Shown piece by piece: positions 34,438-40,461 of a DNA stretch of 64,000 bases. This DNA comes from Cladosporium halotolerans (taxonomy: Eukaryota), in the NCBI RefSeq assembly GCF_011745625.1, contig NW_027191496.1:1-64000 (forward strand). Direction: 5' to 3'. The notes beneath the pieces are model-generated. The model was not told the origin of the DNA. It did not search any database and was given only the letters and a program-made list of their open reading frames with translations. A program made the position numbers and the translations under genes. The number at the start of each line of letters is the position of its first letter. The first letter of the stretch is position 1.

Positions 34438-36026
34438 ATCGAATCAATGAAGATGAAGTCGAAGCAGTGTGAGACAATCGTGGAGTTGTCGGATTGGATG
34501 AGTCCGAAGTCGAGAGAAAGCTGGGCGTTGAGACTGATACTGCAGCAGTCAATAGCACCGTTCCGTATACGGTTCTTCAGTGATGTCTATCTATGAGCTG
34601 TCACTACAAACAATCTGCGTGTATGTTCGTGCCTTCGGCATCTGCCTCGCCTATGGATGTGGGTACAGGACGCGAAGGCGGCGGGGTCGAGCTTTGCCGA
34701 AGGACCGAGCCATGCCAGCAACCTTCCTCGTTATCACCCGTGACCTCTCAGTGTGCCAGCCATACCTCAACACCGTGGTCGCAGACTTCGCCATTCTCAA
34801 AAGGCAGCGATTGAATGGCCTCGGCCATAGCATAAGCGTGAATCACCTCGAAGAAGGACACAACAGCCCGCCAGGTCCACATTGCGTGCGCTGTAGTGTG
34901 CCTTCTCTGGGATCAAAACATACAAATCTGCACGACTGACCATTCTAATAATAAATTTGGAGTCCTATCGCGTACCCGAAATCTTGTAGGCTTGGGAAGG
35001 CGTCGATACGTTCTAGTATATCTGAAATGTTCTCCTTGTGGAAATCTGGTTCCGAAAGCCAATGGAACCTCAAAGGTAGTAGCACATAAATTGTTTTTTC
35101 TTTCTACAAAATAGAGATCATCAAAAATAATCGACTCTATCATGGAACTTCATGGACCTCAACCTTTCCGACGAGCGGTAGTCATGATATATCGATATGT
35201 CTGATCGAGCATGCGACACAAACCTCCCTCTAAGCTCGTGCCTTACTTACACATGCATCGACAAAGATTGTCATCCATCTCAAATCGGTCCGAATGAGCG
35301 TTCGCATTCATTTCCTTGTCTTTCTTGGAAATCCTTGGACTTCCTCTCGTCTGCCGAACCAGAGCCAGCATTCCCGCCCCCGCTATCATGCCCAGAAAGA
35401 TCCCCGCTCAGTCAGGCTGCACCTGCGACATCACCGCTCTTCCATATCCACGATCTCGCATCAATTCATATCCACGTAGAGGCATGTCTTTGGCCTGCTC
35501 TGAAGCTTGACGGTTCTGCGACAGATGCGTTGCCCTTCGCCACAATGGCATAGCCGTGGTTCAGTCCCGACGGCCCTTTTCATCTGGAAGATGGGACTGC
35601 TCGGCGACTTCCATTCCCTCAAGCTACATTTCAAGGTCTCGGCGCCAATATGCGCTCCGTCCAAGCGTACTATAATCCTTTGATCCACTCTTTTCCCATG
35701 GGGTTGGCCACCAAGGTTTAGACCCCATGGCACACCACGCGCGCCGACATGGCACCGCGCGAGTGTGATCGTATGCCGCTCACGGAATCCCATTCTACGC
35801 CATGTGACCGCATAGGCTTGACAAAATTGGTCTGGTCAGAAATCACCGGCATCCTTGGTGCTTGAGTCCCGCAGACTCTGTGCTCTCGCTGTCAGAATAC
35901 TTATTCAACAATGGTGCCCCCACTGTGAGCTGCAGCATCGGCTCCTGCCTGAGACCCCTATCAGAACCGTACTCTTGTCTTCTCCCTCACGACGCAAACC
36001 CATCGAAGTCGGAATCGATTGTCAAA

Positions 36027-38193
36027 ATGGGCATCCGTCTGAAGAAGCCCGACGATGTGGCGGGTGCCGTGCGTTGACATACTGCTCCTCTTTTTATTGC
36101 AGTCGCGATCGCTGACTTCTAGCAGGCATGGCCTGCCATTGCTGTAGGTCTGTTCGTCGCGTTCGGCGGAGTGCTGTTCGGCTACGATACTGGCACTATC
36201 AGTGGTATCCTGGCTATGCCTTAGGTGGGTACTCAAGATGCTAGATAATCGTCCGATCATACCTGACTGACAAAACGCCTCCAGTGAGACTGTCAGACCG
36301 TAGCGTCGCTCCATAGCGTACTGACAAGAGACCTTCTAGCTGGCAAAATTCGTTCTCTACTGGTAACAACGAAGCCATCACCGCTCCACAAGAGTCCCTG
36401 ATCGTTTCCATTCTCTCGGCAGGAACGTTCTTCGGTGCCTTGTTCGCCGCCCCAGTCGCCGATAACCTAGGCCGTCGATGGGGTATCATCAGTAGCTGCG
36501 CTATCGTATTCAACCTCGGAGTCATCTTGCAGACAGTGACGACTGGAAGTCAAGAGATTTTTGTCGCTGGCCGTTTTTTTGCCGGGTTGGGCGTCGGGTT
36601 GATCTCTGCGATGGTGCCACTGTACCAGTCTGAAACCTCACCTAAATGGATACGAGGCACGATTGTCGGAGCATATCAGCTTGCTATCACCATTGGATTG
36701 TTTCTTGCGGCCATTGTCAATTATGCGACAAGGAACCGCAATGATACGGGGTCTTATAGGATCCCAATTGCGGTCCAGTTCGCTTGGTCCATCATCATCT
36801 GCATTGGACTATTCTTTCTGCCCGAGACGCCGCGCTTCCTCATCAAACAAGACAAGCATGAACAGGTGAACCAACGCCCCAACATTTTTGGCGATAAGTG
36901 TCACGATCCTGATCTCATTATAGGCCGCCAAAGCGCTCGCAAAGCTGCGTCGACTTCCCACAGATCACCCAGCTATCGTTGAGGAGCTTGCTGAGGTTGC
37001 AGCCAACCACAAGTCCGTCAAGATTGAACTCAATGCCCAGAAAGACTACTGACCAAATTGGCAGCTACGAGATGAGTATTTCGAAGGCCACATATTTGGA
37101 TTGCTTCCGTGGCAACATTGGCAAACGTCTCTTGACTGGTTGTCTGCTTCAGGTAAGCTATTCTATCTGAATTTCACTGCTTTATTAAACCGCGACAGAT
37201 CGGTTAACGCAAATCAGGCTCTGCAACAATTGACTGGTGTGAATTTCATTTTCTATTACGGCACAGGTGCGTCAATGCCACCCTCGCAGTAGTGTATTGC
37301 GTAGAGCCTGTCCTCCTGACACACCTGCAGCTTACTTCGAGCGTTCCGGCTTCCAAAACCCATTCATCATTCAAGTCATCACTAAGTGAGTCGACTTGCC
37401 CGATATGAAATCCCTCCGCGACTAACGAAGGGTCAGCTGCGTCAACGTCGTCTCGACATTCCCTGGCCTTTACTTGGTCGAAAAGATGGGTCGCCGCAAC
37501 CTGCTCCTCATGGGTGCGGCCGGCATGGCCGTCTGCCAATTCATTGTCGCCATCACAGGAACAGTGGCCGGCACGTCCGATCTTCCTGCTCAGCAGACCG
37601 CTATCGCCTTCGTCTGCATTTACATCTTCTTCTTTGCGAGCTCCTGGGGTCCGGTTGCTTGGGTCGTGACGGGAGAGCTGTTCCCGCTCAAAGTCCGCGC
37701 CAAGTGCCTCTCCATGGTGAGTATTCCAAGTTGGAGGTCTATTGCAGTCGAGAGTACCACTGACATTTACTCAAGACTACCGCGACGAACTGGCTTCTGA
37801 ACTTCATCATCGCCTTTGTGACACCGTACATGGTCGACGAGGACCAAGGGAACTTGCAATCTCGCGTGTTCTTCATCTGGGGTTCTTTCTGGTGAGTCCA
37901 CTATAAAACAATTGTTGGGGTTTAGAACACCCGCTAACTAGATATTCAGCTTCGTATGCATCGCTTTCGTCTGGGCAATGATATACGAGACCAAGGGCCT
38001 GGCGCTCGAGCAGGTCGACGAGTTGTACGGTCTAGTCTCGAAGGCGTGGAAGAGCAAGAGTTTCCGCCCTGCTCTCTCTTTCCAGGAAGTTCAAGAGTCT
38101 GGTATCGGCGAAAAGAAGGGTAGTCTGGCCGAATTTGAGAGGAGGCGGAGCTCGGTTGCTGTACAGCAGGAGAATGTTGAGACAGGAAAGTGA
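36027..38193 (+). CDS. MFS sugar porter / high-affinity hexose transporter; introns 36069-36125, stwintron 36224-36339, 36866-36923, 37013-37064, 37153-37217, 37267-37330, 37386-37436, 37717-37775, and a last intron ending 37949
   Basis: Spliced: FGGVLFGYDTG, DNLGRR, PLYQSETSPKWIRG, PETPR, QQLTGVNFIFYYG, WGPVAWV, YETKG. Confidence 0.93.
36224..36339 (+). other. [D1,2] spliceosomal twin intron (stwintron)
   Basis: G|GTGGGT..CTGAC..CCAG|TGAGAC..TACTGAC..CTAG; excising 36225-36284 creates donor GTGAGA for a 56-nt outer intron and restores codon TA/C (Tyr). Confidence 0.85.
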
Positions 38194-38312
38194 ATGTGGA
38201 AATTGTATACTGTAGGGTATGGAGAAAGAGGCGCATGGCATACGCTTCACGGAACCTGCATAGGGTATTATGGCTATTCGTCTAAGGCGGTAGCTCACCA
38301 CGAGATCTCAAC

Positions 38313-40049
38313 CTACTGCTTCTGCTTCTTCTTGTCCGGCTCCTCTTCATCGTCGCTCACTTCAGCATAGATCGTCTCCGGCTGCGTCTCCTTCCAAGCA
38401 TTCGTAAACAGCGGGTCATTCTTCGCCTTGTCCGCGTATTTGAGTAGAGCTTCACGCGGATCCTCGTCACGCAGACTGCTGAGAGGGATCTGGCTCTTGA
38501 CGTAGCCCTCGTCGGGGTTTCCCTTCGCGAATGGTGTAGTTTGTGGCACATGCGGGCGTCTAGGATCCCTGCTGCGACCAGAGGCCGTTAAACCGACGTT
38601 GGGGTGGCGTGCGGCGAAGGAGGTGGCAGACGGTGCTGAGCCACCAGGGAGGATGACAGCGTCGTTCGAGATGCCCTGCGAAAGATCCGTGGTGAAATTC
38701 GGGTCGTCGTCGACATGGCGGCGTTTGGGAGCACGTGACATGACGAAGTTGGCGCCTCCAGTAGAAGTGTTTGGGTTGTACAGAATGTGTGTCTCACCAT
38801 TTGCAGAACCAGTGATGATCTGGTTGATTTTGGGGTGCCATGTCGCGGTGATTAGAGCAGATCCCCGTGTGACTGGTGTGACGAGTTCAGGGCGCAGAGT
38901 GGCAGGATTGAGAATGTGCAGGTGACCGGTCTCAGAGCCTGTAATGATGTTTGCTGAGTTCGATGTGAATCGGATACTTGTCGATGCGTATTGCGCAGAG
39001 GTTGAAGCATGTGATATGGTAGCCAGCGGTTGCTTGAATTTGCGGGTATCCCAAGTCTTGATGGTATCATCGCCGCCTCGCGTGACTACTAGTCTTCCGT
39101 CTGCACTGATGTCCACTCCACTGGTCCAGGTATTCGGCGCATGAGCTTCTCGTATCTCAGCGGCAGGCCTGCTGTATGGCCCTTCGCCATTCCACATCGA
39201 CATGGTACCGTCGAGGGCGGTAGCTACGAGGATGTTGTTTCCACCTTGCATGGGCGAACCCCATGCCACCGCAGTCATACGAGATCGTCCAGCTGAGCCA
39301 GCAGCCTTAGACTTATGTACTATGACCTCCTTTTGGCTCCTTGCATTGTTGATATCCCAAATTCGTAGAGTGCTGTCCGTTCCAGCCGTTACACAGAGGT
39401 TGCGATCAGTGGGATGCCATGTTCCTGTCGTCACTTCTGAGACATGGCCTTTTGTGTGATGCATATCTCGTAGGTACATGTCACCCTTGGCAAATTCTAC
39501 CAGCATGTCTCCTTCTCTTGAAAGCACCCGTGCTTGAGGGAGGGCAGTGGTGGTCAATATGTGCCCAGCCGAGATTGGATTGAAGATGACTTGGTTAATT
39601 GGATGGCTCTCCGCGTTCGAGCTTTTCGATTCTGTAGGATCGACAGATCGGAAAGCTCGTATCGTGGTCGGTGTCATAGAAGCAAAATCATGGAGCTTCA
39701 GCGAGCAGTCCATGGAACCCGTCACCAAGCGCGATCCAGACGGGTCCAGGGTGACAGCAGTGACGGCCTTGTCATGCGTCTTGATGATCATCTCGTGCGA
39801 GACGGGAAATTCATCCTCGTCATCACTCTCGTCGTCGTCGTCGTCACTATCATCGTCGCTGTCTTTCGCCTTGCGCGAGGCCTTGCCGGGCCTCGACTCC
39901 TCTGGGACGGATCTCTTGGTTGACTCCACCTGCTTCTGCACGCTGTCGTCTTTTGGTTTCTGTCGCGTTTGTTTTCCAAAAGACGTAGTACCTAGAAACT
40001 TCTGTAGCTCATCGTTTTGCTCAATCTCAGGCTCAGAGTCGGATCCCAT
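38313..40049 (-). CDS. WDR70: WD40-repeat protein WDR70/GAD-1 family
   Basis: FPVSHE, KGDMYLRDMHHTKGHVSEVT, TRGGDDTIKTWDTRKF, DEDPREALLKYA. Confidence 0.88.
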   Translation of the reverse strand: MGSDSEPEIEQNDELQKFLGTTSFGKQTRQKPKDDSVQKQVESTKRSVPEESRPGKASRKAKDSDDDSDDDDDESDDEDEFPVSHEMIIKTHDKAVTAVTLDPSGSRLVTGSMDCSLKLHDFASMTPTTIRAFRSVDPTESKSSNAESHPINQVIFNPISAGHILTTTALPQARVLSREGDMLVEFAKGDMYLRDMHHTKGHVSEVTTGTWHPTDRNLCVTAGTDSTLRIWDINNARSQKEVIVHKSKAAGSAGRSRMTAVAWGSPMQGGNNILVATALDGTMSMWNGEGPYSRPAAEIREAHAPNTWTSGVDISADGRLVVTRGGDDTIKTWDTRKFKQPLATISHASTSAQYASTSIRFTSNSANIITGSETGHLHILNPATLRPELVTPVTRGSALITATWHPKINQIITGSANGETHILYNPNTSTGGANFVMSRAPKRRHVDDDPNFTTDLSQGISNDAVILPGGSAPSATSFAARHPNVGLTASGRSRDPRRPHVPQTTPFAKGNPDEGYVKSQIPLSSLRDEDPREALLKYADKAKNDPLFTNAWKETQPETIYAEVSDDEEEPDKKKQKQ

Positions 40050-40461
40050 CTTTGCGCTTGGGCCTGGGCCTGGACCTGCGTCTGCGGTGTTGCGAGCTTC
40101 GCGCGCGGTGATAATGAATCGGCAAGAAGAAAGTGAGTTCCACTTACGGCTGCACTACCTGTCAATCACGTGCCTGCAGTTGGTGTACAATCGACAACCT
40201 TTAGCAAGTCGTGAATGAGCAGAAAGAGACCGCGGTGGAAGTCCGCGCCCAGGTCAAGCTCCAAACCTCAGGCCCACCTTCACAAGCCAGCCGCCTGGAA
40301 GTCGCCGCTTGGCGAAGATCCACCGAACAAACCCCACCACCGCCCACCTTCTGCCCTTCGCGGACAACGTGGCGAAAAGAATGGACCTCCTGCACCACGC
40401 CGCGAACCTCTACCACTCCTTCAACAACCTGAGTTTGTCGCTGTTCGAAGCACAAGACGAG

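Follow-up and report, generated by a model that had tools for sequence, protein, structure and literature searches.

It was Flipphi, Fekete and colleagues who defined the class of spliceosomal twin introns (stwintrons; definition in PMC5587772), and the described systems closest to ours belong to its [D1,2] type, in which the donor of an outer intron is interrupted between its first and second nucleotides by a complete inner intron. Published work counts 117 [D1,2] stwintrons for a single Hypoxylon genome (PMC9024468) and describes such stwintrons in Hypoxylon sp. CO27-5 and in other Hypoxylaceae and Xylariaceae (PMC9024468, PMC12403724, PMC8469720), one in the DHA1 antiporter gene of Aspergillus nidulans (PMC5587772), and an alternative [D1,2]/[A2,3] form in Trichoderma reesei (PMC5587772). 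Here we describe an element on the plus strand of contig NW_027191496.1, within a window of 64,000 bases (the whole stretch of DNA analyzed, positions 1 to 64,000 of the contig), and we consider it very probable that this element, intron 2 of a sugar porter gene, is a donor-disrupted [D1,2] stwintron. While the [D1,2] class is rare and already known, what is added is an RNA-supported, cross-species-conserved case in a Cladosporium-like Dothideomycete.

The entire intervening sequence (36224..36339) is 116 nucleotides (nt) long, starts with GG and ends with AG, and is about twice the size of the eight canonical introns of the same gene (51–65 nt). Exon 2 (36126..36223) ends in ATG CCT TA, and the next intron, in phase 2, interrupts a Tyr codon. 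The next base, G36224, is the first nucleotide of the split outer donor, and directly behind it lies a complete inner intron of 60 nt (36225..36284) with the donor GTGGGT (36225–36230), overlapping branch-site candidates CCTGAC and ACTGAC (36262–36271) and the acceptor CAG (36282–36284). This inner unit reads GTGGGT, CCTGACTGAC, CAG, with TGAGAC next. The remainder of the outer intron (36285..36339, 55 nt) carries the branch site TACTGAC (36319–36325) and the acceptor TAG (36337–36339). Joined to TGAGA (36285–36289), G36224 gives GTGAGA, which is among the 24 donors allowed by the published search expression for [D1,2] stwintrons (PMC9024468 section 2.1; hereafter model A, with a minimum intron of 42 nt), and G36224 plus 36285–36339 makes an outer intron of 56 nt with its own branch site and acceptor. 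Exon 3 (36340..36865) starts with C TGG CAA (Y-W-Q), and the TA of exon 2 with C36340 restores a Tyr codon and the peptide MPYWQNSF; protein relatives read AM[P/K/E/D][Y/F]W at the junction. Because an in-frame TAG lies at 36222–36224, a plain intron from the GT at 36225 to the AG at 36339 would leave a stop codon. These letters are as described in the first-pass annotation, made from the sequence without database searches, which had drawn attention to the end of exon 2, G36224, the in-frame TAG, both intron units and C36340.

Compared letter for letter with the Hypoxylon [D1,2] stwintrons, the locus shares the G before a complete inner U2 intron, an arrangement of the inner acceptor directly against the outer-donor remainder (HAG|TRWGY, with model A fitting throughout), a separate branch site and acceptor for each unit, and an apparent GG-AG skip in mature RNA (PMC9024468, PMC12403724, PMC8469720). 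It also resembles the "uniquely occurring" Hypoxylon class in that one gene position is conserved among related species. It differs in that the host is a Cladosporium-like Dothideomycete and not a member of the Xylariales, and in that the splicing intermediate was seen in Hypoxylon, whereas here the stwintron is known from its mature junction and its sequence. The A. nidulans DHA1 case likewise places a donor-split nested intron in an MFS-type transporter gene, although the gene family here is sugar porter and not DHA1, and in both the A. nidulans and the T. reesei stwintrons the diagnostic G precedes the 5'-most donor, as it does here (PMC5587772). Unlike the alternative T. reesei form, for which a G after the last acceptor is the mark of the [A2,3] route (PMC5587772), the base after the last AG here is C (C36340), and it is C in six of six aligned sequences. 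The [A2,3] route is closed because C, not G, follows the final acceptor, and the earlier remark that this route needs a G there agrees with the published definition. A further difference from the systems in that paper is that a canonical intron one nucleotide away was not seen in the relatives here. A minor-spliceosome (U12) intron was set aside, the donor looking unlike the U12 consensus.

RNA contigs place the junction to the base. Of 20 runs holding at least part of the gene, four from four studies (X1, X2, X6 and X16) were compared; the evidence consists of assembled contigs, which drop rare forms, and depth over the intron derives entirely from exon overlap. In each of X1, X2 and X6 (studies P1, P2 and P5) one contig joins 36223 to 36340, skipping 116 nt that run from GG to AG, with flanks of 32, 98 and 98 letters, respectively. 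Placement is unambiguous, as zero letters fit both sides. The mature junction predicted in the first-pass annotation, CCTTA|CTGGCAA with an apparent GG-AG intron, is therefore what all three spliced runs, from three studies, contain. The other eight introns appear in the same runs as GT..AG skips of 51–65 nt, and all nine splice joints of the gene were seen overall: nine of nine in X2, eight of nine in X1 (exon 1 uncovered) and eight of nine in X6, whose contigs break at intron 3 with a 10-letter loose end that resembles how exon 4 begins. The last base of intron 1 is 36125. The X16 contigs are DNA-like, being unspliced through all introns; they cover 36121–36234 without a gap and 36216–36917 with one 1-nt gap at 36885. 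As for strain variants, the runs carry about 20 single-letter differences across 35990–38230, besides the one base absent at 36885 (intron 3) in X16; one set is common to X2 and X6, X1 is nearer the window, and none of the listed differences falls inside 36224–36339.

These contigs bear directly on two other ways of reading the locus. In the first, the distal donor would be used, so that an intron from GT(36225) to AG(36339) keeps the TAG and yields a 46-residue stub or a decay-bound transcript, making this a broken or regulated gene. With AG ahead of it, GTGGGT has a favourable donor context, and infrequent direct use of the distal sites is reported in Hypoxylon (PMC9024468). However, three of three spliced runs show the 36223 to 36340 joint and no contig in X1, X2 or X6 shows 36224 to 36340 (contigs drop rare forms, so a minor by-product is possible), and the downstream frame is open (528 amino acids) with 90% identity to relatives over exon 3. 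As the main product, we regard the stub as highly unlikely. In the second, G36224 would be an extra letter and the real intron a plain one of 115 nt, GTGGGT..TAG, after CCTTA; the site does lie in a run of G, and without one of them the intron would be canonical and correctly phased. Against this, the unspliced X16 contigs, from an independent study, have no indel at the site, GGT is found in all five distinct metagenome relatives described below, and a complete inner acceptor and donor remainder would be left as an unexplained coincidence. We give a sequence artefact almost no chance; G36224 is real and no assembly error, because X16 is gapless there and GGT is invariant in the six aligned sequences. 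The assembly error that the first-pass annotation had named as a possible refutation was looked for in both the DNA-like X16 contigs and the aligned DNA.

We then asked how many splicing routes could produce the observed junction, by enumerating every pair of GT/GC..AG excisions inside 36224–36339 that yields it. Exactly one GT-AG two-step route exists: removal of the inner intron 36225–36284, followed by removal of the 56-nt remainder that starts with GTGAGA. No single GT-AG intron in the enumeration keeps exons 2 and 3 in frame. Two remainders would serve as outer introns with a GC donor; at 37 and 24 nt they fall below the 42-nt minimum, and they lack a G at position 5. Four single frame-keeping introns with a GC donor, at 36213 or 36218, were also found, and none of them occurs in the RNA contigs. 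Searched on both strands of the window, model A gave one match, exactly 36224–36339, the junction seen in RNA to the base. Dinucleotide-preserving shuffles, 100 in all, averaged 0.09 matches, and 8 of them had at least one. The nested arrangement is more than chance, since model A matches the window once, at the RNA junction, versus 0.09 times per shuffle.

The nesting is also conserved. Scanning metagenomes with exon 3 yielded 79 loci, and six of these (L001–L006) have 89–91% protein identity over exon 3; L005 and L006 are identical at the stwintron site, so the aligned set comprises six distinct sequences, the window and five metagenome relatives. All of L001–L006 read G + GTAAGR, a branch site, YAG + TGAGC, ACTAAC and AG, placed between bases 2 and 3 of the same shared Tyr/Phe codon, with inner units of 52–54 nt and outer units of 56–59 nt. 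Model A matches four of the six loci at the site (L001–L004) and none of 12 other loci scanned. The window intron has 40–45% identity to those of the relatives, while the flanking exon letters are 75–88% identical. Within this drifted sequence the invariant columns concentrate at the splice elements, at 4 of 7 for the G plus inner donor, 6 of 8 for the inner acceptor plus outer-donor remainder and 2 of 2 for the final AG, compared with 13 of 99 in the rest of the intron, 5 of which lie in the outer branch site. The G, T and +5 G of the inner donor and the AG of the inner acceptor are invariant in the relatives, as are GGT at the donor and C36340 in all six sequences, and no invariant run within the intron is longer than AGTGAG (36283–36288), where the inner acceptor meets the outer donor. 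The proposed comparison of orthologous intron positions returned the same nesting in the same codon in five distinct relatives, and together with the sole GT-AG two-step route this supports the [D1,2] reading put forward in the first-pass annotation.

Conservation also bears on a third explanation, namely that the intron is removed in one step by non-canonical splicing at A36223|G36224, with GGTGGG heading a 116-nt GG-AG intron and the inner signals incidental. The mature RNA contigs show only the GG..AG skip and contain no intermediate, and in the predicted fold the two ends pair with each other, which might bring the distal sites together, except that this fold is no better than the folds of shuffles. 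On the other hand, AGTGAG and the inner branch site persist in six of six sequences while the remaining intron has drifted to 40–45% identity, and the other eight introns of the gene are all canonical. The U at donor position 2 is nearly invariant in U2 introns, GC being the usual exception, and this too counts against one-step removal. One-step GG-AG removal is disfavoured because AGTGAG is conserved where such an intron would have no constraint, and we judge it improbable.

Under the [D1,2] reading, the spliceosome would first excise the 60-nt inner U2 intron (36225–36284; GTGGGT ... CTGAC ... CAG). G36224 would then meet T36285, creating the new canonical donor GTGAGA, from which a second reaction could excise the 56-nt outer intron, using the branch site TACTGAC and the TAG acceptor ending at 36339. 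Exon 2 (...CCT TA) would in this way be fused to exon 3 (C TGG...), so that the Tyr codon is restored and the frame stays open. The mature junction, the sequence anatomy, the uniqueness of the GT-AG route and the conservation of the nested sites are observed, while the order in which the two reactions occur and a splicing intermediate between them are what we infer. Validation in the field has drawn on RNA reads showing exon fusion and intermediate, reverse transcription polymerase chain reaction, and comparative genomics (PMC9024468 section 3.2), and two of these three lines, RNA exon fusion and comparative genomics, are available here.

Several observations do not favour this reading. No contig lacks only 36225–36284, the expected intermediate, which, like the depth over the intron, is uninformative either way given that contigs drop rare forms. 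L005 and L006 fail strict model A, only through a rarer inner branch site (TTAAC/CTAAG). The predicted fold of the element has an energy of -24.7 kcal/mol (z +0.54), which 139 of 200 shuffles equal or better. In this the element differs from the best-studied Hypoxylon sister stwintrons: its fold is not significant, and it has neither symmetry nor a sister copy in the 64-kb window. A blastn-short search for sister copies in the window found nothing beyond chance words of 9–13 nt, and no inverted repeats were found in 36200–36360. A special fold or symmetry was accordingly rejected as a feature of the element, given the z of +0.54 and the lack of inverted repeats.

The host gene, modelled from sequence as a continuous frame, spans 36027..38193 on the plus strand and encodes 528 amino acids in 10 exons. 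Besides exons 2 and 3 these are exon 1 (36027–36068), exon 4 (36924–37012), exon 5 (37065–37152), exon 6 (37218–37266), exon 7 (37331–37385), exon 8 (37437–37716, starting in phase 2), exon 9 (37776–37891) and exon 10 (37950–38193), which ends in the stop codon TGA (38191–38193). Exon 3 matches the Pfam profile PF00083 (Sugar_tr) with an E-value of 3.9e-50 (171.5 bits, cut-off 22.3) and also matches the MFS_1 profile, whereas exon 2 scores 18.6 bits against PF00083, under the same cut-off. A third piece, 37437–37715, gave no family match, having been read one base out of frame. A search with exon 3 returned 3948 relatives. The top named one is a Cladosporium fusiforme protein with 90% identity over exon 3, and next come Dothideomycete proteins whose source names include "RGT2-like", "rco-3" and "low glucose sensor". 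Because of these exon-3 relatives and the Sugar_tr match, the predicted product is a sugar porter and the host, as judged by similarity, is a Cladosporium-like Dothideomycete. Converging on the 3' end of the transporter gene is a 613-amino-acid stop-to-stop open frame on the minus strand (38313–40154), the N-terminal part of which is acidic and rich in Ser and Asp.

The C. fusiforme protein model (P0002) illustrates what such an intron can do to annotation. At residues ~46–71 it reads AM-ELVTNTEHSRTQVDSRVNELTPSSFS-WQNSF, with 26 odd residues at a spot where 11 other relatives have AM, two residues and W or F. To go by the protein sequences, a gene finder seems to have worked around the same nested intron here. 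The first-pass annotation had supposed that automated annotation would likely truncate this gene; a wrong model at this spot does exist in P0002, in the form of 26 spurious residues, whereas truncation does not apply, as P0002 is not truncated. A gene finder restricted to GT-AG introns cannot build the sugar porter gene correctly, and in RNA data such introns can be flagged by an apparent GG-AG skip.

Two other phenomena share features with the locus. Recursive splicing and plain nested introns, named as distinct from stwintrons in PMC5587772, also remove one long intervening sequence in more than one spliceosomal step. In recursive splicing, as at Drosophila ratchet points, a 5' splice site is likewise regenerated after the first step. 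What differs from both is that the outer donor itself is interrupted here, between nucleotides 1 and 2. Because of this interruption, the outer intron would be unrecognisable until the inner one is gone, and this is what defines a twintron in the strict sense. Introner-like elements, known from Capnodiales fungi (PMC8469720) and reportedly also described by van der Burgt et al. 2012, come from the same broad fungal group, and the intron positions of the sugar porter gene resemble them in turning over quickly between close relatives. However, introner-like elements are canonical single introns with many similar copies and stable folds, whereas the element here lacks a stable fold and has no copy within the window. 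The first-pass annotation had left open whether this instance was already reported: the stwintron literature searched mentions neither Cladosporium nor a hexose, sugar or glucose transporter, with the 2013 and 2015 first descriptions in Fungal Genetics and Biology and the supplementary tables lying outside the search, so an earlier report is possible.

More distant relatives give a view of the site without the intron. Four loci that are genomic, having introns elsewhere (L008, L016 with 74% identity, L023 and L027), have no intron at the stwintron codon, and neither do L011–L013, on contigs of 6.5–41 kb. L007, L009 and L010 also lack it; their contigs are no longer than 2.2 kb and possibly transcripts, and they were excluded from the count of empty sites. 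A canonical intron at the stwintron position was never seen among the relatives examined. In L001, L002, L004 and L005, the stwintron and introns 1, 3, 7, 8 and 9 are common with the window; introns 4, 5 and 6 of the window (within 37013–37330, and RNA-confirmed there) are absent, and an extra intron lies inside the equivalent of exon 8 (37437–37716). Four of 10 intron positions thus differ between the window gene and these relatives, while the stwintron is kept in six of six sequences of the clade.

The two units also show some likeness to each other. In the window, the parts that run from branch site to acceptor (inner 36258–36280, outer 36312–36334) have 74% identity over 23 nt, and the inner/outer alignment scores 42 compared with 15–39 for the other eight introns, a score reached by 3 of 2000 interior shuffles. 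Across species, the 3' 25 nt of inner and outer units are more alike within than between species, and 6 of 720 permutations reach the observed value, a proportion that is not a probability given that the sequences are related. For whole introns there is no within-species excess in the six sequences (392 of 720 permutations), and the units were rejected as whole duplicates. From sequence comparison, the likeness of the 3' parts hints weakly that the units have a common origin or have co-evolved; it could also reflect a species-specific taste in branch sites (CTGAC vs CTAAC), or chance among kin.

Tentatively, the nested intron may have entered the Cladosporium lineage at a formerly empty site and been unusually stable since, a scenario that we hold to be possible and rather doubtful. 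The six diverged sequences form a natural series, constant only at the splice elements of the two units. With ordinary introns turning over fast in the same gene, the locus is well suited to asking if an intron gains stability from being nested. If the scenario is true, the two units, each dependent on the other, would hold a twin intron in place more firmly than an ordinary intron is held, and [D1,2] stwintrons could originate or spread as whole units beyond the Xylariales.

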